This document shows, in pieces, positions 4,237-54,237 of a DNA stretch of 64,000 nucleotides; position 1 is the stretch's first letter, and the number at the start of each line of letters is the position of its first letter. The notes under the pieces were generated by a model. It made no database searches, was not told the origin of the DNA, and worked only from the letters and a program-made list of their open reading frames with translations. The stretch lies in the IMG/VR virus record IMGVR_UViG_3300030294_000676. One strand, written 5' to 3'. This DNA is from a virus (taxonomy: Duplodnaviria > Heunggongvirae > Uroviricota > Caudoviricetes). Position numbers and translations under genes: made by a program.

Positions 4237-4629
4237 TTACCAATCAATATTAATCATATACTCACCCGCTTCAATTAACCCTCTTTCATAAAGATCGTTT
4301 ACAATTGTTTCAATATGTGGATAAAAGTTTCTTTCCCACCATAAATCATTTTGACCTTTATAAGATTCAGGATGAAGTTCATTTATTTCTTCAACTGTAG
4401 TATTTAACCAAGTATCAAAAGAAACACCCATTTCATCACCATTTATTTCAAATTCTAATGAAGTATTTTCATAATAATCGGGTTCTCTTACAGGTATTGT
4501 TATATAATCTACTCCTCTACTTTTACAACCATCTTGTTGTTGAAACATATAAGGTTTTCCGTAAGTTTCTCTAATTAATCTATCAAGATCATATGAATTA
4601 ATTATTTTCTTTGTTTCGTATCTTAACAT
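4237..4629 (-). CDS. hypothetical protein (130 aa)
   Basis: ORF track. Confidence 0.55.
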   Translation of the reverse strand: MLRYETKKIINSYDLDRLIRETYGKPYMFQQQDGCKSRGVDYITIPVREPDYYENTSLEFEINGDEMGVSFDTWLNTTVEEINELHPESYKGQNDLWWERNFYPHIETIVNDLYERGLIEAGEYMINIDW

Positions 4630-5035: not shown

Positions 5036-5896
5036 TTAATTAATTTTTTCATTACTGAAACTACTTGGATAAATACTCATATCTTTAAGATCTAAGAATT
5101 TACTCATAATTTCGGGTTCATATAAACTTATCTTTATATTGTGATCACCATCTTTAAGATAAGGATAGAAATTTGCACCAAATGCTATTTTACTCGCGTC
5201 TTCTGGTAACTGAGTTACAAGATAATCCCAATCAATTTCTTTATGAGGAGCACGTCCTACATTACCATAAGGAAGAAGTACAAAGTAATCAACTTTATCT
5301 TTCCACTCATTATAAATTTTAACAAAATCATCAATTGATTGTTTATCAGAAATTATATGATGAAAATTAAGTTTAATTCCATTTCCCACATAAAGTTTTG
5401 CTGCATTATCCCAATATTTTTTCAAATGTGGATGACAACTTATAGCAACTCCTCCACAATATTGTTTTGTAGCATTTAATAAATTTGCTTGTTCTTGAGG
5501 ATTAAATTCATCTAAATGATACCACATACCATTAGTAGTATAATTTGGAGTAATATCAAACTCTTCCTTACAAACTCTCATCAATTCAACAAAATCAGGA
5601 TGTGAAGTTGGTTCTCCACCACCAAATGCTATTTGAAAAGGTAATTGTTCTTTTGAAACATTACTGAAGAAAGTTTTAAATTTATCAACAATATTCTCAT
5701 AATGAGTTTCTTTCTTACTATCCATATAACACCACGGACATTCACCCTCACAATTTCCAGTAACTTTTACATCATAAAATTCTGGATACTTCAACTCAGT
5801 AATAGGTTTACTTGGATCAATTGCAAAACGAATTGTTTTACCATTACACCAAATAGCTCTATAATTAGCATCTTCTTCTTTTCTTCTTTTAATCAT
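5036..5896 (-). CDS. radical SAM domain protein
   Basis: CEGECPWC (Cx3Cx2C) followed by GGGEP. Subfamily not resolvable by eye (NrdG-like or QueE-like). Confidence 0.7.
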   Translation of the reverse strand: MIKRRKEEDANYRAIWCNGKTIRFAIDPSKPITELKYPEFYDVKVTGNCEGECPWCYMDSKKETHYENIVDKFKTFFSNVSKEQLPFQIAFGGGEPTSHPDFVELMRVCKEEFDITPNYTTNGMWYHLDEFNPQEQANLLNATKQYCGGVAISCHPHLKKYWDNAAKLYVGNGIKLNFHHIISDKQSIDDFVKIYNEWKDKVDYFVLLPYGNVGRAPHKEIDWDYLVTQLPEDASKIAFGANFYPYLKDGDHNIKISLYEPEIMSKFLDLKDMSIYPSSFSNEKIN

Positions 5897-6927: not shown

Positions 6928-7234
6928 AAATTGCTAACGTACTTCCTGCTGCAGCTGAAATTGCCATAAAAGATGAAATAGAGTTTGTTTCAAAAGCTTC
7001 ACCACCTTCTTGAGATGATGATGCTGGAAATAATTGAACTTCATAATCAGTTGGAGATACAATAGAATAAGCTCCTTTTAAAGGAATTTTCTTCAAATAA
7101 ATTATATTCGGACTGGTATTTTGAAATCTAACATTAACTCTTTTTCTATTTTTTTCGACTACAATTGTAGCAGTAGTTCCTATTGTAATTGGGCTTGCCA
7201 TAATTTTAATTTTTTTTAAAATTATTTTAAACAA
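6908..7234 (-). CDS. hypothetical protein (108 aa)
   Basis: ORF track. Confidence 0.5.
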   Translation of the reverse strand: MFKIILKKIKIMASPITIGTTATIVVEKNRKRVNVRFQNTSPNIIYLKKIPLKGAYSIVSPTDYEVQLFPASSSQEGGEAFETNSISSFMAISAAAGSTLAIYETYKI

Positions 7235-17360: not shown

Positions 17361-17369
17361 ATATAGAAG

Positions 17370-17456
17370 CGTACACGGCAGGATTCGAACCTGCGGTGGA
17401 ATATTATTCACCAGGTTAACAGCCTGGACCTGTCGACCAACTAAGGCAACGTGTAC
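17370..17456 (-). tRNA. atypical tRNA with anticodon GTT (Asn-like) but a long variable-arm hairpin (type-II-like)
   Basis: Perfect acceptor GTACACG/CGTGTAC, anticodon stem CCAGG/CCTGG, loop CTGTTAA, extra arm GAAT-AAT-ATTC, T-arm GCAGG-TTCGAAT-CCTGC, G73. Confidence 0.6.
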
Positions 17457-20046: not shown

Positions 20047-20991
20047 TCATACATTATGTACAATTATTTGTAAATCAGCAAATTGTGTGATTAACTTCTT
20101 ATGACCATTAATAAAATCTCTAGCTGACATAACCTTTTTATTAGGTAATTGTAATGAAACAATCTGAAGACTACTTTTATTACAATTTATAAAAAGTTTA
20201 TTATTTTCAACACAAATTAATTCTCCATCTAAGAAATCACCTTTAACACGTCCAGTATACATACATGCATCTTTAATTTTAACTTCAGTATTGTTATCTG
20301 GTAAATAAAAGAATACTCCGTGATTCGATTCATATGCCTTCATTTTTGCATATACATCATCAACATTTTTATTAAAATCAAGTAAACAATCATCTTTAGT
20401 TATTTTACAACAATATGTAGCTTCACTTTCTATCTGTGGTCTTAAAATAACTCCACGAGTATATTTAGTGATTGTTAGAAGAATATTTTCAGCAGCTAAG
20501 TTTGATAATTGATCAAGAAGCATAATATATCCCATTCCTACAGGTAGATACATTTTACGTTGAGTAATAATACTTCCAGCATCTACAGCAGCATTCATTT
20601 TAATAAATGTAACTCCTGTTTCAGAATCTCTATTCAAAATAGCAGCTTGAATACAAGAAGCACCTCTATACTTCGGTAATAATGAACCATGAATATTAAT
20701 TGCACCATATTTAGCAGAATCAAGTATTTTCATTTTAATTATTTGTCCATAAGATGCAACAACAATTAAATCAAAATCAGTACTAATTATACGATGTTCA
20801 AGTTCATTAATATCATTAGCAGTATATACTAAACAACCTAAAGCTTTACCAGCAATATAAATAGGTGTATTTTGTACTACTCTACCGAAACGTCGTGGTG
20901 GTGTTGTTATAACTGTAACTTGATAAATTTCATGTAATTTTTTTAATGCTGGAACTCCAAAAATTCCATTACCAATAAATAATATCTTCAT
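20047..20991 (-). CDS. fmt: methionyl-tRNA formyltransferase
   Basis: NIHGSLLPKYRGASCIQ, ETGVTFIKMNAAVDAGSII and the C-terminal VSLQLPNKKVMSARDF align closely with E. coli Fmt (NVHGSLLPRWRGAAPIQ; LSLQPAGKKAMSAQD). 314 aa. Confidence 0.85.
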   Translation of the reverse strand: MKILFIGNGIFGVPALKKLHEIYQVTVITTPPRRFGRVVQNTPIYIAGKALGCLVYTANDINELEHRIISTDFDLIVVASYGQIIKMKILDSAKYGAINIHGSLLPKYRGASCIQAAILNRDSETGVTFIKMNAAVDAGSIITQRKMYLPVGMGYIMLLDQLSNLAAENILLTITKYTRGVILRPQIESEATYCCKITKDDCLLDFNKNVDDVYAKMKAYESNHGVFFYLPDNNTEVKIKDACMYTGRVKGDFLDGELICVENNKLFINCNKSSLQIVSLQLPNKKVMSARDFINGHKKLITQFADLQIIVHNV

Positions 20992-21010: not shown

Positions 21011-21096
21011 CGGAAATGTAGGATTCCAACTCCTATTCGCCTAAACGAACGCTTTGCTTAGCAGGCAAGCCTTACTTCTCGTAAGTTACTATTTCC
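21011..21096 (-). tRNA. tRNA-like, possibly Ser (anticodon GCT) with non-canonical D-arm and T-loop
   Basis: Acceptor pairs with one mismatch. 5-bp D-like hairpin CTTAC-GAGAA-GTAAG. Anticodon loop CTGCTAA on a bulged stem. Variable hairpin. T-stem TAGGA/TCCTA with loop GTTGGAA lacking TTC. Confidence 0.4.
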
Positions 21097-21109
21097 AGTT
21101 TAATTATTG

Positions 21110-21199
21110 TGGAAGAAGTGGGATTCCGACCCACGCACCGCTTTTACACGATCTAACGATTTTCAAGACCGTCCTCTTAAAGCACTTGAGTACTCTTCC
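21110..21199 (-). tRNA. tRNA-Ser (anticodon TGA), type II
   Basis: Acceptor GGAAGAG/TTCTTCC, anticodon loop CTTGAAA, long variable arm, T-arm GTGGG-TCGGAAT-CCCAC. Confidence 0.65.
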
Positions 21200-21206
21200 A
21201 TTTAAT

Positions 21207-21407
21207 TTATTGATTTGATTTTAAATAATTCTCATAAATAAGTTTAGATTCTTCTGTAAGAAAATTCTTATTAATCGGTTTGTGATTTAGATTAAAAGGA
21301 AATAATTTACCACATTCGGTACACCAACTAATTCCCCAATTATTAATTCTAGGAACACATCCTAATTTTACACATTTAGCTGCCATCTTAATTGTTATTT
21401 TCGTCAA
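21207..21407 (-). CDS. zinc-finger-like small protein (66 aa)
   Basis: CVPRINNWGISWCTECGK. Confidence 0.45.
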   Translation of the reverse strand: MTKITIKMAAKCVKLGCVPRINNWGISWCTECGKLFPFNLNHKPINKNFLTEESKLIYENYLKSNQ

Positions 21408-21822
21408 ATATTCCTTTTAAATACCAATAATCTTCACATTTTTTAGAATATGATTTACATTCATTTTCAATATGTCTCCAATTCTTTCTTACAAAAGAAG
21501 TTTCTTCATATTTAAAATAAGTTTTACCATCTATATAACTCTCGGGTTGTAAAAATCTAAATCCTTCAACTTCTATTTCTTTACGTTCAAAATTATATTT
21601 AGGTTTATCAGGAAAAATCGGAGGAGTTATAATCTGATTCCAACTTTTAGCTGAATGTTCTTTACGTCGACCATATTGAAAAGTGTAAGGATTATAATAA
21701 TTCTTACTATTCCATCGTTTGTCATATCTTTCACATACTGAAAGTTGAATCATTGCAGTTTTATGAACATTAGGGCCATTTAATTTAACTCCTATTCTTT
21801 TTAAATAATCTAAACATTTCAT
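21388..21822 (-). CDS. hypothetical protein (144 aa)
   Basis: ORF track. Confidence 0.55.
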   Translation of the reverse strand: MKCLDYLKRIGVKLNGPNVHKTAMIQLSVCERYDKRWNSKNYYNPYTFQYGRRKEHSAKSWNQIITPPIFPDKPKYNFERKEIEVEGFRFLQPESYIDGKTYFKYEETSFVRKNWRHIENECKSYSKKCEDYWYLKGIFDENNN

Positions 21823-21842
21823 TTTATCTATTTTTATATTTG

Positions 21843-21925
21843 TACTCGAGGTCGGACTCGAACCGACACATCTTTCGACATATGCTCCTAAGGCATACGC
21901 GTATTAACCATTTCGCCACTCAAGC
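21843..21925 (-). tRNA. tRNA-Leu (anticodon TAG), type II
   Basis: D-stem GCG/CGC, anticodon stem TATGC/GCATA, loop CTTAGGA, T-arm GTCGG-TTCGAGT-CCGAC. Confidence 0.75.
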
Positions 21926-21930
21926 ATTTG

Positions 21931-22012
21931 CACATCAGGTAGGATTTGAACCCACGAACCTTTCGGATTAGTTTTGGAGACTAACTACTTTAACCGCTTG
22001 TATACTGACATA
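21931..22012 (-). tRNA. atypical tRNA with anticodon CCA (Trp identity: CCA plus G73) but type-II-like architecture (3-bp D-stem, long variable hairpin)
   Basis: Anticodon stem TTAGT/ACTAA, loop CTCCAAA, variable arm TCCGAAAGGTTC, T-arm GTGGG-TTCAAAT-CCTAC, discriminator G. It is the only CCA-anticodon tRNA found in the array. Confidence 0.6.
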
Positions 22013-22017
22013 TTTGC

Positions 22018-22096
22018 TCCCCCAAGGAGGACTCGAACCCACATGTCTCTCGACATATTCCGAAGAATACGCGTCTGCCAATTACGCCATTGGGGA
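22018..22096 (-). ncRNA. tRNA-like RNA with normal acceptor, D-arm and T-arm, but with two tetraloop hairpins (UUCG and GAGA) in place of an anticodon arm
   Basis: TCCCCAA-TG-GCG...CGC, then TATTC-TTCG-GAATA and ATGTC-GAGA-GACAT, then T-arm GTGGG-TTCGAGT-CCTCC and TTGGGGG. Confidence 0.45.
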
Positions 22097-22102
22097 ATTT
22101 AG

Positions 22103-22191
22103 TGGGGGCGGAGGGCTTCGAACCCCCATGTCTCACGACCGCTATGGTCTAACCTATATTTAGCTGCGGCTACCAATTTCGCCACACCCCC
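22103..22191 (-). tRNA. Leu-type (type II) tRNA-like with non-canonical anticodon loop ATATAGG (apparent anticodon ATA)
   Basis: Acceptor GGGGGTG/CGCCCCC, D-arm GCG-AAATTGGTAGC-CGC, 4-bp anticodon stem CTAA/TTAG, T-arm GGGGG-TTCGAAG-CCCTC. Confidence 0.45.
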
Positions 22192-26530: not shown

Positions 26531-26607
26531 TACCTACTCCTGGGATTGAACCAGGCTGTCACCAAATAACCTTTCAACAAGATATAAGCTTGAGGGTATA
26601 AGTAGGC
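26531..26607 (-). ncRNA. aberrant tRNA-like (76 nt). Good acceptor and T-arm, but no canonical D-arm; internal hairpin CAAG-CTTATAT-CTTG
   Basis: GCCTACT...AGTAGGT acceptor, T-arm CCTGG-TTCAATC-CCAGG. The middle does not fold as a cloverleaf. Confidence 0.4.
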
Positions 26608-30643: not shown

Positions 30644-31144
30644 CTATTCTTTAGGGAATTCTAGTTCTTGTTGAACTTTTTTTGGTGGAACTTTATAGTT
30701 CATTGGCATCATTGTTATAATACCATTTCTTACATACATCTCAGCACAACGATTATCATCATCAAATGCCATAAGAATGTCATACTCTTCTTGAAGCTTC
30801 TTTAAAGTAGCTTCTTTCGATAAATATGATTTAGTATAGTCTATACCTTGTTTCATGAATAATTTATATTCATCATCATACAGAAGTCCTCCGTCTTCTA
30901 GTTTTTCAATTAACCATGCTTCGGTTTGAGGTCTTACTCGTTCAGGTCTCCCTGTAACAAGTAAAATCATATATCCTTGCATAGCTAGTGATTGCATTAG
31001 TTCACCAACACTTTTAATAAGCACGTCACCTGATAAATCACTCCAATCAAAAGGACTTCTGTTAGTATGATACAAAGTAGTAAGATCTAAATCAAAGATT
31101 ACTGCTTTTTCTTTTTCCATAAGTTTTTTAAACTTGGTTTCCAT
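30644..31144 (-). CDS. HAD-superfamily phosphatase (polynucleotide 3'-phosphatase-like)
   Basis: AVIFDLDLTT (motif I DxDxT) ... LLVTGRPE (motif II). Confidence 0.65.
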   Translation of the reverse strand: METKFKKLMEKEKAVIFDLDLTTLYHTNRSPFDWSDLSGDVLIKSVGELMQSLAMQGYMILLVTGRPERVRPQTEAWLIEKLEDGGLLYDDEYKLFMKQGIDYTKSYLSKEATLKKLQEEYDILMAFDDDNRCAEMYVRNGIITMMPMNYKVPPKKVQQELEFPKE

Positions 31145-31375: not shown

Positions 31376-32806
31376 TTATTTACTTGTTTTTAAATCGGCT
31401 TCAAGATAACTCTTAGCAATAGTGCGAATTTCTGTCCAATGTTGATCTCTCATTAATTTACCATTACGATAAACTATTTCAAGTTCATCAGCATATCCAT
31501 TATTAATACCATATTGTTCTTTAGAACTTTCGATAGTAATGAATTCTGATCCGGCTTTATGAAGTTTCAAAATACCAGCTTTTGAAGCTTTAGTCATATC
31601 TCCTTTAGGAGATTTACGAATATCTTTTGATTCTCCATCAATTACAGCGAAACAGCATTTTACTGCCCAACGATCTGTATCTCTGGTCAATCCTTCAACA
31701 AGCAAACCACCACCTGAACCAACCGCAAAGTTTTCACAAGACCAACCAGTTTTAATGTATTCTGAATAAATATCAACGATTGAATTTTCATTCATACCAT
31801 CTCCTTGAATTAAGCCTACATTATGATTAATTACTCTGTAATCTACTTCATTTAAGTGATATCCAAAAATATTACCAAGCATTTCAGAATACTTAATCAT
31901 ATTTGTTAACGGAACACCAGAATCCGGACGTAAAATAGTTCTACCTGGACGTGCGATAATACGTTGTTTGATTGCTTCTGAACCAATAACATTTTTAATG
32001 AAATTAGTATCATCATAAGAATCAATAACAATTGATACCATAGCATCGTCACCAGCGCGATCAAATTGAGCATTGACATAATCAAATTCTCCCTGACCAG
32101 GACCAAATACAGTTGCTACTGAGTGTTCAGTTGCCCATACAGATTTTCCTACGGTTGCATCTCCGTAATAGTCTTCAATAAATTCCATTGCTGGAACATT
32201 ATCAGAACCATCAGAAAAGATTAAAGCAGCAGAACCACCTAAACAAGCAGCTTCATGACCTTGAGCACCTCTTAATCCAAAATCATTAACTACATAATCC
32301 AACATAGCGTTGTTAGTAGAGATTTTGAATGATGGAGTAATACCTTTATGAATATTATACATACGAGTAGCAACGGCAACTGGATACCAATTCCACATTA
32401 ACCAAGGTTCGAAGTGACTAACCATTGGTGCAAACCACTCTTCAGTAGCTTCAATTGTATAACAAACATTACCAGTTGGAACAACAGTTCCTTCTTTTAC
32501 AGCTTTGATTTCTAAAGGATAATATCCTAAATCGCGAACTTTTTCCCAAATTTCTTGAGGGAAATAACCAGGGTTACCAAAAGTATTTAAACTTCTACGA
32601 GCACCACGTTCAATATCTTCATTAGTGACAACAGTCATAAAATATTCTTTTATGAAATATTGTATACCATAGAAAACAATATGAGAGTGTTGACCTCCTA
32701 CACGAGGTTCTCCATAAGACATAAGTCTTGTCAATCCCGAAGGACGTTGCGTCCAATGCACAAATTTATATGCATCAGTTGCGGTTGTTGGATGAAATTT
32801 TGGCAT
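31376..32806 (-). CDS. nadV: nicotinamide phosphoribosyltransferase (NadV-type)
   Basis: 476 aa. N-terminal ATDAYKFVHW matches the NAMPT signature (ATDSYK.TH). Size and layout match phage KVP40 NadV. Confidence 0.8.
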   Translation of the reverse strand: MPKFHPTTATDAYKFVHWTQRPSGLTRLMSYGEPRVGGQHSHIVFYGIQYFIKEYFMTVVTNEDIERGARRSLNTFGNPGYFPQEIWEKVRDLGYYPLEIKAVKEGTVVPTGNVCYTIEATEEWFAPMVSHFEPWLMWNWYPVAVATRMYNIHKGITPSFKISTNNAMLDYVVNDFGLRGAQGHEAACLGGSAALIFSDGSDNVPAMEFIEDYYGDATVGKSVWATEHSVATVFGPGQGEFDYVNAQFDRAGDDAMVSIVIDSYDDTNFIKNVIGSEAIKQRIIARPGRTILRPDSGVPLTNMIKYSEMLGNIFGYHLNEVDYRVINHNVGLIQGDGMNENSIVDIYSEYIKTGWSCENFAVGSGGGLLVEGLTRDTDRWAVKCCFAVIDGESKDIRKSPKGDMTKASKAGILKLHKAGSEFITIESSKEQYGINNGYADELEIVYRNGKLMRDQHWTEIRTIAKSYLEADLKTSK

Positions 32807-33381: not shown

Positions 33382-33720
33382 TTATAGTTTTATTAATTTA
33401 ATAAATTTTGAAGTGTCTTGTTTAATAACATCGTGTTGAAATCTTTCATAAAATTTAATATCAACTGCTTCAAATTCATGAACAAACCATCCAAATTTTT
33501 GAAGTTTAATAATATCTGCTTTAGGAAACCATTGATATAAACCCTCTAATGATTCAGTAACTGATAACCAGCCTACTAATTTAGGATCAAAATCCATTTC
33601 AAGTTTTGAATTTAAACAAAAATTAAAATCATTATGAATTAATCCTGTAAAAATACCTTTATAATCATACCATAAACCTTGATGGGTATTTATGTTACAT
33701 ACTCTGTAGTATTTTTTCAT
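33382..33720 (-). CDS. hypothetical protein (112 aa)
   Basis: ORF track. Confidence 0.55.
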   Translation of the reverse strand: MKKYYRVCNINTHQGLWYDYKGIFTGLIHNDFNFCLNSKLEMDFDPKLVGWLSVTESLEGLYQWFPKADIIKLQKFGWFVHEFEAVDIKFYERFQHDVIKQDTSKFIKLIKL

Positions 33721-34616
33721 TTTTCAGTATTTTTTAATAAGTCAACTAATAACTTTTTATGTTCTCCAACCAAGATTTTGTCTAGCTCAGGACCGTATGG
33801 GAACCATTTTAAGGCAGCAATATCATCTTGAGGTTGTGGACTACCAAAAGTATATTTACATTTGTATAAATGCGTCATAATTTTAGCATCATGTGAATTC
33901 TTATATCGCCAATCTTCTACACGTTTTGAACAAACGAATTCAAAGTCAGCAAGTTCAAGACCTGTTTCTTCTCTACCTTCACGACGAGCAGCAGCTTCAT
34001 CGGATTCATCAGTAACATCAACAAATCCTCCAACAAAACACCATTCTTTTTCATCAGGTTTTTGACCTAATAGAATTTCACCTTTTTCATTAAAGATTGC
34101 AACATCAACTGTTGAAAATGATCGGGGATATTGTGAAAAAACCGAATAAATTATACCAGCTCTGAAATCAGATGATGCTAATATACGTCCGGCAACTTTC
34201 TTTCTAATATCTGTTGCAGATATATAGACTTCTGGTTCAAGTTCAGTTGTTTTCCAATTTCCAGTATAATATGGAATAAACGAATCTTTACCTCCATAAA
34301 GAGTAACTGTTCCAGATGGAAAAATATCTCTTACTTTAGTACGAATTTGAGTAGACCATACTTCATTGGATTTACAATCAGCAAGTGGTACAATTGAAGA
34401 TATTCTATTTCTAAAATGTGCTTCGATCATAGCTTTACGGGTAATAAAATCCAATGGATTTCTTTGAGTACCCATTGCAGATGTAGTTCCTAAGAATAAA
34501 ATTACCTTTTCGTGGTTTGCAAGAACATGTTCAATTAACTTGATATGTTCAGTATGCAATTCGTGTAGCTGAAATCTCCCGATAACAACTCCAATTTCTG
34601 TTTGAGTTTCGTTCAT
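33717..34616 (-). CDS. natV: bifunctional NMN adenylyltransferase / Nudix hydrolase (NatV/NadM-Nudix type)
   Basis: GVVIGRFQLHELHTEH (nucleotidyltransferase HxGH-type motif) and the Nudix box GGFVDVTDESDEAAARREGREETGLE. Confidence 0.8.
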   Translation of the reverse strand: MNETQTEIGVVIGRFQLHELHTEHIKLIEHVLANHEKVILFLGTTSAMGTQRNPLDFITRKAMIEAHFRNRISSIVPLADCKSNEVWSTQIRTKVRDIFPSGTVTLYGGKDSFIPYYTGNWKTTELEPEVYISATDIRKKVAGRILASSDFRAGIIYSVFSQYPRSFSTVDVAIFNEKGEILLGQKPDEKEWCFVGGFVDVTDESDEAAARREGREETGLELADFEFVCSKRVEDWRYKNSHDAKIMTHLYKCKYTFGSPQPQDDIAALKWFPYGPELDKILVGEHKKLLVDLLKNTEK

Positions 34617-41197: not shown

Positions 41198-41300
41198 GTA
41201 TTACGCTCTTTAATATTTTTTTCATCTTTATCTATGTGTTTTTTAATTATTTTTGTTCCGCACCGTATTTCTACGGATTGGAATCAAAAACAAAATGAAA

Positions 41301-41362
41301 TGGAGGGATAGAGAGATTCAAACTCCCGACCCTAGGCTCTTTTCGGCTGAGCTATATCCCTC
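41301..41362 (-). ncRNA. 62-nt tRNA-like minihelix (acceptor, one hairpin, T-arm; no separate anticodon arm)
   Basis: GAGGGAT-ATA-GCTC-AGCCGAAAA-GAGC-CTAGGGTC-GGGAG-TTTGAAT-CTCTC-T-ATCCCTC-CA. Perfect 7-bp acceptor and encoded CCA. Confidence 0.4.
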
Positions 41363-41678
41363 TTTTTAATTGATTCACTAATGCATCAAAAGCACTAATA
41401 CGTGGTTTAGCATTATGTACATCCCACCAATAAGTGATAGTTATTAACTGACACTTAGGTTCTTCGAAATTATACTGTGATGCTAATTTACACACGTTTT
41501 CATAAGTAAATGTTGGAAGAAAATCATCTATCTCAAAAATTGAGGATTTATAACCCTTATCTTTAAGAGTGATATTCAAACTCCAACACATACTACAGAA
41601 ATTCAAAGCATTCTGATAGATTAAATACCTAGCTTTAGCTTCTTCAAATATTGCTATTTGATCATTTACGGGAATCAT
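41352..41678 (-). CDS. hypothetical protein (108 aa)
   Basis: ORF track. Confidence 0.55.
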   Translation of the reverse strand: MIPVNDQIAIFEEAKARYLIYQNALNFCSMCWSLNITLKDKGYKSSIFEIDDFLPTFTYENVCKLASQYNFEEPKCQLITITYWWDVHNAKPRISAFDALVNQLKRGI

Positions 41679-46063: not shown

Positions 46064-46149
46064 TTCTTTTTATCATTTTGTGTTTAACCTACACGAATTG
46101 TGTAACGCACTAAGCTTAATAACTTTATACTCCCTTAGTGGAGTTAAAA

Positions 46150-51015: not shown

Positions 51016-51101
51016 TATGGATAAAAGGATTTGAACCTCCGACCTCCGGCTAATGTTTTTGTCTTGCTGCCGACGCTCTAACCAGGCTGAGCTATATCCA
51101 A
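51016..51101 (-). ncRNA. tRNA-like RNA with canonical acceptor, D-arm, variable loop and T-arm, but an expanded 18-nt anticodon loop
   Basis: TTGGATA-TA-GCTC-AGCCTGGTT-AGAGC-G-TCGGC-[AGCAAGACAAAAACATTA]-GCCGG-AGGTC-GGAGG-TTCAAAT-CCTTT-TATCCAT. Confidence 0.45.
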
Positions 51102-53855: not shown

Positions 53856-54237
53856 AAGAACTTCTTTGTTAATTTATTAATAATATTGATTTGTTTTGAA
53901 AAAACCTATTAGCACAAAGTCCTTTCGGTATCTCTGACTTCAAAGACAGGCTAGGACTCGAACCTATATCTCACTTTCATGTATGCTATTGTAGCGACTC
54001 TACAGCTACTCCATTTACTTAACCACATGCCCAACTAATAAGTTTAAAAAAAGAATTGTCAATCCTTTCCAAAGAGATTGAAATTATATTAACCATAAAA
54101 ATAATATATCTATAACTCTAATATTTGATCTATGGAATTAATGAACTCATACCATTTCAAGTATAATGCTAAGGTGAGGACTTTGGTTTCTCACAATATT
54201 TATTCACGATCAACTAATTAGCAATTCTCTTATTTGT

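Follow-up and report, generated by a model that had tools for sequence, protein, structure and literature searches.

Aberrant tRNA-like genes of two classes in the tRNA array of a Caudoviricetes phage

Arrays of tRNA genes in phages are usually explained by codon supply or by the replacement of tRNAs that have been destroyed by nucleases. The tRNA-Lys of phage T5 reportedly resists the PARIS system, and such phage tRNAs are said to decode and to replace the cleaved host tRNA. In phage T4, small stable RNAs known as species 1 and 2 are reportedly processed from the tRNA cluster. Irregular tRNAs of another kind are the allo-tRNAs, whose 12-bp acceptor/T branch is arranged as 8/4 or 9/3 and which combine a small loop on a long D stem with a long variable arm and G73 or U73 (PMC5389517). 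In the same study, Mukai et al. (2017) reported 8/4 tRNA-Ser in phages as well as polycistrons of irregular, possibly non-translating tRNAs from peat and forest soils (PMC5389517). The tRNA-Other of Bacillus cereus is a pseudo-tRNA with a regulatory role and without a function in translation, which is encoded on the chromosome and flanks a genomic island (PMC3399842). Here, a 64,000-nt stretch of DNA from a large soil virus of the Caudoviricetes (IMG/VR record IMGVR_UViG_3300030294_000676), in the following called the window, is analyzed with respect to three tRNA-like elements (elements 1, 2, and 3; Table 1). The original prediction had assigned these elements to a cluster of tRNA-like genes whose anticodon arms cannot decode. 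All three exist at the predicted positions on the minus strand, inside an array of 24 tRNA genes. The proposed inability to decode holds for elements 1 and 2 but is wrong for element 3 because its anticodon stem-loop, with the loop CU-GCU-AA, is normal. The aberrant tRNA-like genes are real and extend beyond the window, but two classes are mixed in the cluster. The chances are about even that the whole is correctly explained as two different classes within a fast-evolving, mosaic phage tRNA array. Related loci for comparison, designated by L-numbers, were contigs with homologs of the formyltransferase gene adjacent to element 3, complemented by a DNA scan anchored on the tRNA(CCA) gene of the array.

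In element 1, a script-based pair check confirmed stems of 7, 3, 5, 4, and 5 bp for the acceptor, D, anticodon, variable, and T arms, respectively; an acceptor stem of 8 bp is also possible. The D loop retains G18G19 and the T loop reads UUCGAGU. The anticodon stem has a C-G closing pair and a UUCG cap, i.e., a loop of 4 nt, and element 1 cannot decode. Two tetraloop hairpins had been proposed to replace the anticodon loop. This applies to the UUCG cap, but the second hairpin is an ordinary long variable arm with a 4-bp stem and the loop GAGA, for which the neighboring tRNA-Leu(UAG) has UGUC-GAAA-GAUG at the equivalent place. Compared to this paralog, the anticodon stem of element 1 shows a compensatory exchange of G-C to U-A. 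ARAGORN reports element 1 as ‘tRNA-???’ with a 2-nt anticodon, and the Rfam tRNA model (RF00005) aligns the whole cloverleaf with 28.2 bits, below the gathering score of 29, with five anticodon-loop positions reduced to two. The nearest matches among 50,697 phage records are ordinary tRNA-Leu genes with about 76% identity.

The ends, the D arm, and the variable arm of element 2 align with tRNA-Leu(UAG) of T5-like Klebsiella phages and of Pseudomonas phage RVTF4, and its anticodon arm is about 6 nt longer than in these genuine phage tRNA-Leu(UAG) genes. The names given by ARAGORN are Tyr(ata) for the window copy of element 2 and Ile(aat) for an ortholog. Rfam matches it via its ends only, with no tRNA match at E ≤ 10, and the best match is a weak end-to-end alignment with transfer-messenger RNA (tmRNA) of 14 bits against a gathering score of 47, which does not place element 2 in the tmRNA family. 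The aberrant arm, which had been described as a 4-bp stem with the loop ATATAGG, is real, and the stem CUAA/UUAG with the loop AUAUAGG does form in the window; two of its four pairs are, however, lost in the ortholog of L013. Two other folds fit all variants. One consists of an outer stem GCUR/YAGC around an interior of 16–20 nt. The other, obtained with RNAalifold, consists of a helix RGCU/AGGY, whose loop has 7 or 9 nt, and a subsequent hairpin GACC-AYAGC-GGUC. No fold of element 2 contains a conserved 7-nt loop with U33. All stem substitutions keep pairing, with G-C to G-U in the D stem, U-G to U-A in the acceptor stem, and an A-U to G-C covariation in the helix RGCU/AGGY. A tRNA intron was rejected because the inserts comprise 3–11 nt and group I introns are the only tRNA introns known from bacteria. 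Quadruplet or frameshift decoding was also rejected for both elements, given that the loop of element 1 has 4 nt and that of element 2 differs in length among orthologs.

In line with what had been suspected from the sequence, neither ARAGORN nor Rfam folds elements 1 and 2 as ordinary tRNAs. Outside the anticodon arm, both have the textbook acceptor and T arms ascribed to them, and the D arm and the elbow nucleotides are canonical as well: a 7-bp acceptor stem, a T stem of 5 bp, which in element 1 contains a single U-C mismatch, the T-loop motif UUCRA, and G18G19. The canonical 7-nt anticodon loop with U33 and a purine at position 37 is absent from elements 1 and 2 and present in element 3.

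Together with a long-arm tRNA(CCA), elements 2 and 1 form a cassette of 262 nt, which was found in three phage lineages, i.e., the window, L013, and L021. In the latter two, the gene order Lys, element 2, element 1, tRNA(CCA), Leu(UAG) is kept. The conservation in related phages that had been suggested as a check was thus found for elements 1 and 2 in two further lineages, with pair-preserving substitutions. In L013, the first 59 nt of element 1 are identical, and only the T stem, in which all pairs form in this copy, and the 3' end have changed. Over both elements, five of the six substituted stem pairs remain paired, which has a probability of about 0.018 under a crude one-third null. The locus L015 has the formyltransferase of L013, but exactly elements 2 and 1 and the tRNA(CCA) are missing, and Lys joins Leu(UAG) via a similar spacer. 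The block is likewise missing from L022 and L023, and the boundaries between presence and absence are clean. Elements 1 and 2 are separated from their neighbors by 4–5 nt, so that their transcription and processing presumably occur jointly with the array.

In L013, the tRNA(CCA) that completes the cassette has an identity of 100%. It occurs without elements 1 and 2 in L017–L020, and covariation is seen in its acceptor stem in L017, L019, and L020. The gene is kept across distant relatives, where it often adjoins an open reading frame (ORF) resembling homing endonucleases. It is the only tRNA(CCA) of the window and combines the long variable arm with a Ser/Leu-type D arm; a tRNA-Trp is normally short-armed. 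In L020, ARAGORN misses a gene between Lys and tRNA(CCA) (about 1817–1727, minus strand) that resembles Lys(UUU) and has 19 nt in its D loop and 6 bp in its anticodon stem.

Based on this anatomy, elements 1 and 2 derive from class II tRNA-Leu genes and have kept the acceptor, D (G18G19), variable, and T (UUCGA) arms but lost the anticodon loop. In place of the latter, element 1 has a helix with a c(UUCG)g cap, and element 2 has an enlarged arm without a conserved 7-nt loop. The retained parts should suffice to adopt the L-shape and to be recognized by RNase P, RNase Z, and the CCA-adding enzyme, and the two elements move with the long-arm tRNA(CCA) as an accessory cassette. It is fairly probable that they are kept by selection as tRNA-shaped, non-decoding RNAs. 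As such, they could act as uncleavable competitors that engage a class II tRNA-binding factor of the host, e.g., an anticodon-loop nuclease. This decoy mechanism, which had been proposed beside roles as sponges, primers, or regulators, is the leading guess, suggested by the anatomy and by the arms race of phages and hosts over tRNAs, and it is a tentative one. No precedent for anticodon-less tRNA decoys of phages was found in the searched literature.

Element 3 belongs to the other class. From its sequence, it is likely a non-canonical, decoding-competent, allo-type tRNA-Ser(GCU) that has replaced the canonical gene at this locus. The minimum-energy fold and a pair check yield an acceptor of 6+3 bp with one bulged A, a D stem of 5 bp with the 5-nt loop GAGAA, an anticodon stem of 6 bp with one bulge that closes the normal loop CUGCUAA, a variable stem of 6 bp, a T stem of 3 bp, and G73. 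The 5-bp D-like hairpin and the T-loop GUUGGAA described previously were confirmed; with this T-loop and the D loop GAGAA, element 3 does not share the textbook T arm and the canonical loop features of elements 1 and 2. The same slot contains element 3 in the window, L021, and L022, and a canonical tRNA-Ser(GCU) in L013, L014, L015, L023, and L024, so that both forms are mutually exclusive at eight loci. Because it alternates with the canonical tRNA-Ser(GCU) at one site, element 3 probably decodes. Apart from element 3, the window lacks a Ser(GCU) gene, and 27% of its Ser codons are AGY. In L022, all 86 of 86 positions are identical, beside a formyltransferase gene with 44% protein and about 70% DNA identity, a pattern that does not fit a pseudogene. 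The copy in L021 has a single change, G-C to G-U, which keeps pairing. A GIY-YIG endonuclease is encoded upstream at the L022 locus, and the swap with the canonical gene may have been caused by an exchange linked to homing endonucleases. Ser(UGA)-like sister genes invisible to ARAGORN are present in L017, L020, and L023; they have 8+4 pairs with a conserved U-U at pair 7, and their D, anticodon, and variable stems have undergone many compensatory exchanges. ARAGORN does not call element 3, and a tRNA match at E ≤ 10 is missing in Rfam. Points that speak against the assignment of element 3 are that it is matched by neither the tRNA nor the tRNA-Sec model of Rfam, that its 9+3 pairs are canonical only with A7 bulged, and that the T-loop is without the usual U54/C56/A58 pattern. 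The alternative 7/5 reading leaves an A-C mismatch.

Three further genes of the window, starting at positions 26531, 51016, and 41301, had been regarded as similar to elements 1–3. They fold as described but differ in kind. The 26531 gene has an invariant 7-nt loop, CUUAUAU, and its ortholog in L056 has nine differences, seven of which are located in pairs; all seven keep pairing, including three double compensatory changes. AUA makes up 26% of the Ile codons in the window. Judged from these features, the 26531 gene is probably a D-armless, non-canonical decoder. In contrast, the 51016 and 41301 genes cannot decode. The former belongs to a family, with homologs in L101, L034, and L046, whose members have a common body and an anticodon ‘loop’ of 10, 14, or 18 nt. 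In L046 (IMGVR_UViG_3300006056_001742, 5698–5843), a complete 75-nt tRNA-like gene lies inside the anticodon loop of the homolog. This nested gene is Arg(UCU)-like and has a 6-nt loop and an encoded CCA, and the stem TCTGC/GCAGA borders the loop that contains it. If RNase P and RNase Z processed the inner gene, the outer one would be left in two halves. The five elements of the window with aberrant anticodon arms all have intact acceptor and T helices. Remodeled anticodon loops recur across the clade: in a wider survey, comprising 80 related loci with ARAGORN calls, many tRNA genes with loops of 6, 8, or 9 nt were found, and in phi17:2, a cultured relative, a gene annotated as ‘tRNA-OTHER/pseudo’ combines good acceptor, D, and T arms with the absence of an anticodon stem. 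Downstream of the latter and outside the called tRNAs, phi17:2 (L029) has the T-arm-like motifs GAGAGTTCGATTCTCTC and CAGGTTCGATTCCTG (41290–41330 and 41410–41440). A lone canonical T-arm hairpin, TAGGTTCGAGTCCTA, is present in the window at 53940–53975 (minus strand); the T-arm-like site at 53954 was rejected as a further element as it has no matching acceptor stem.

Maintained structure is favored over decay for elements 1 and 2, but not strongly. A serious rival, although a less than likely one, is that both are freshly inactivated tRNA-Leu paralogs, left redundant once alleles had been swapped in the mosaic array and still undecayed; their conservation would then be due to a short time of divergence and to the tRNA(CCA), a functional gene with which they hitch-hike. 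Several observations weigh against maintained structure or are in accordance with such pseudogenes. The window and L013 are mosaics, with several ORFs at 88–96%, the formyltransferase at 77%, and tRNAs at 55% to 100% identity, and the 88–95% identity of elements 1 and 2 does not exceed this local background. With L021, the identity is about 98% over the whole tRNA block, which is the background for the elements as well, and the differences cluster outside the block. Within the cassette, the gradient from 88% for element 2 via 91–95% for element 1 to 100% for the tRNA(CCA) (‘Trp’) suggests a weaker constraint on the elements. The cassette is absent from the close relatives L015, L022, and L023 and thus dispensable, and the covariation is thin because elements 1 and 2 are represented by no more than three distinct variants. 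Two of these three variants, the copies in the window and in L021, carry the U-C mismatch in the T stem of element 1. The base following the acceptor stem varies between A and G in element 1 and between A and C in element 2, and a similar gene is labeled tRNA-Pseudo in the annotation of phi17:2. Decay does not readily account, however, for the five of six substituted pairs that are still paired, one of them by a double compensatory change, or for a lesion that is limited to the anticodon arm and leaves all tertiary-contact nucleotides intact. Moreover, a change from CUUAGGA into a perfect c(UUCG)g cap takes several steps, and at least four independent genes of this genome have lost the anticodon loop by different routes, with perfect acceptor and T helices.

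It is improbable that the aberrant centers are scars of the insertion and excision of tRNA genes or homing endonucleases at anticodon loops, which would leave a functionless RNA. The whole tRNA-like gene within the loop of L046 and the graded loop lengths of its family are consistent with such events, as are the HNH and GIY-YIG endonuclease genes interspersed among the arrays and the complete tRNA alleles that have been exchanged between relatives; the precise UUCG tetraloop and the later pair-preserving evolution would be left unexplained, and the body of the 51016 family is retained across relatives with 50–70% identity. The class II bodies of elements 1 and 2 would also be compatible with charging in the absence of decoding, since leucyl-tRNA and seryl-tRNA synthetases do not read the anticodon, and the elements could then serve as amino-acid donors or as synthetase sinks. 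Irregular tRNAs that are charged yet unused in translation (Mukai et al., PMC5389517) and the tRNA-Other of B. cereus (PMC3399842) provide precedents. The variable discriminator base argues against a fixed aminoacylation identity, which should hold it constant, and no aminoacyl-transferase gene was seen nearby, so that charging is a quite improbable explanation. Finally, elements 1 and 2 could be tRNA-shaped spacers that provide RNase P and RNase Z sites for correct cutting of the adjacent tRNA(CCA), with which they are co-inherited at distances of 4–5 nt; this is highly improbable, as the tRNA(CCA) exists without them in L017–L020 and ordinary neighboring tRNAs would do equally well.

If elements 1 and 2 are indeed maintained as tRNA-shaped, non-decoding RNAs, complete tRNA bodies with a closed-off anticodon loop would hint at a third role for genes of phage tRNA arrays, in which the tRNA shape itself is the ligand. 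The irregular putative decoders would widen the known range of working viral tRNA architectures, and they reveal a blind spot of standard tRNA finders. The natural polymorphism offers comparisons of phages with and without the cassette and of canonical and probable 9/3 tRNA-Ser at one site. A more far-reaching reading, which is rather unlikely, is that a clade of large Bacteroidota-type phages systematically remodels anticodon arms into decoys or inhibitors of tRNA-targeting immunity. The routes of remodeling would include tetraloop caps, enlarged loops, deleted arms, and a tRNA nested in an anticodon loop, and the resulting RNAs would be processed like tRNAs yet be neither cleavable nor readable. 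The 9/3 Ser and the D-armless UAU tRNAs would then be nuclease-resistant replacements.

The window has a G+C content of 30%, and its genes and tRNAs are located on the minus strand. ARAGORN places the 24 tRNA genes at 16.2–28.5 kb and additionally calls a tmRNA. Most of these tRNAs are also matched by Rfam, which adds a tRNA match at 51016–51101 and a Pistol ribozyme match. According to a 718-aa protein, the phage is close to the Cellulophaga phages phi17:2 and phi4:1 and to a 462-kb uncultured phage. The same phage recurs in many JGI, ENA, and Logan assemblies with contigs of up to 175 kb; ten near-identical contigs are at least 99.94% identical and thus too uniform to inform about population variation. 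A scan of IMG/VR with the formyltransferase protein alone revealed no relative. Exact and degenerate DNA scans of IMG/VR with elements 1 and 2 and with a generic pattern of a Leu D-arm plus c(UUCG)g gave no match, nor did a scan of GTDB genomes anchored on the tRNA(CCA). In a promoter and terminator scan, hits were no commoner than in shuffled sequence. The coordinates of the features discussed here are compiled in Table 1.

Table 1. Positions of the tRNA-like elements and of associated genes in the window
Feature	Positions	Strand	Description and basis
Element 1	22018–22096	minus	Leu-type class II tRNA body; stem UAUUC/GAAUA capped by UUCG tetraloop
Element 2	22103–22191	minus	tRNA-Leu(UAG)-derived body; enlarged central arm with 16–20 nt interior or two small hairpins
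tRNA(CCA)	21930–22011	minus	Long variable arm, G73; third cassette member, 82 nt; ARAGORN, Rfam
Element 3	21011–21096	minus	Likely 9/3 tRNA-Ser(GCU) with one bulged A; 29 of 29 pairs canonical
Methionyl-tRNA formyltransferase-like gene	20047–20991	minus	Pfam Formyl_trans_N and Formyl_trans_C; adjoins element 3; anchor for relatives
tRNA-Leu(UAG)	21842–21925	minus	Canonical class II; closest paralog of element 1 in the window; ARAGORN, Rfam
tRNA-Ser(UGA)	21109–21199	minus	Canonical 7/5; 100% identical in L013–L015 and L021; ARAGORN, Rfam
D-armless tRNA-like gene	26531–26607	minus	Long central arm ending in loop CUUAUAU (UAU triplet); fold
tRNA-like gene with 18-nt anticodon ‘loop’	51016–51101	minus	Rfam tRNA, 47.5 bits; fold
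tRNA-like gene without anticodon arm	41301–41362	minus	Acceptor, D, and T arms; 5' body common with the 51016 gene; fold

Several other genes of the region are unusual for their content or their distribution. The formyltransferase-like gene is situated inside the tRNA array, and its nearest non-phage homologs are from Patescibacteria. An ORF encoding 144 aa (21388–21822, minus strand) between Leu(UAG) and Ser(UGA) is cleanly missing from L021 and has no homolog in the phage collection according to tblastn. Just upstream of the array, an ORF with a PNKP phosphatase domain, a nicotinamide phosphoribosyltransferase, and a Nudix protein are encoded (30644–31144, 31376–32806, and 33717–34616, respectively; minus strand), the latter two of which suggest salvage of nicotinamide adenine dinucleotide. 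Repair of tRNAs was set aside as a weak context since only the ORF with the PNKP phosphatase domain and no RNA ligase was found. The tmRNA of the phage (36485–36893, minus strand) scores 107 bits and encodes the tag peptide GNKTISFARTAFMAAA (ARAGORN and Rfam), and the match to the Pistol self-cleaving ribozyme (46083–46144, minus strand) has 41.6 bits at a gathering score of 34.5 (Rfam). Other alleles of aberrant size are likewise exchanged among relatives: the tRNA-Asn of the window has 88 nt with a long extra arm (17369–17456, minus strand) versus a 74-nt version in L013, and L013 also carries a short-armed Leu(UAG) of 77 nt (743–819) and a Thr of 84 nt (4306–4389). Suppressor-type tRNAs with the anticodons CTA and TCA are encoded in L034 (312–384) and in L058 and L069 (both at 7056–7128), which hints at stop-codon recoding in parts of the clade.

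Among the described systems, the tRNA-like domain of tmRNA and mascRNA are examples of acceptor/T minihelices that are kept for processing and CCA addition without decoding. Element 2 differs from tmRNA in that it has neither an mRNA-like domain nor a tag reading frame, and its scores are far below the family thresholds. The T4 species 1 and 2 resemble the elements as small RNAs encoded in a phage tRNA cluster; no such match was obtained with Rfam. With tRNAs of the T5 tRNA-Lys/PARIS type, elements 1 and 2 would have in common that genes of phage arrays are shaped by a conflict over the anticodon loop; as they have no decodable loop, they are not replacements of the PARIS type and could be competitors at most. 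The tRNA-Other of B. cereus is without the conserved features of the D- and T-loops, whereas elements 1 and 2 keep these features and have lost the anticodon loop alone. Elements 1 and 2 are not allo-tRNAs because their architecture is canonical 7/5. Element 3, compared by the published description (PMC5389517), is unlike allo-tRNAs in its bulged A7, in a D loop of 5 nt instead of a tetraloop, and in its T-loop GUUGGAA. It shares with them the 6-bp anticodon stem and the D-stem, variable-arm, and discriminator features, i.e., a long D stem (5 bp) with a small loop (5 nt), a long variable arm with a 6-bp stem, and G73; with A7 bulged, the 12-bp branch would be split 9/3 as well. The 8/4 type reported from phages (PMC5389517) is matched by the sister genes in L017, L020, and L023. 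Element 3, and probably also the 26531 gene, thus look like non-canonical decoders of an already described kind.

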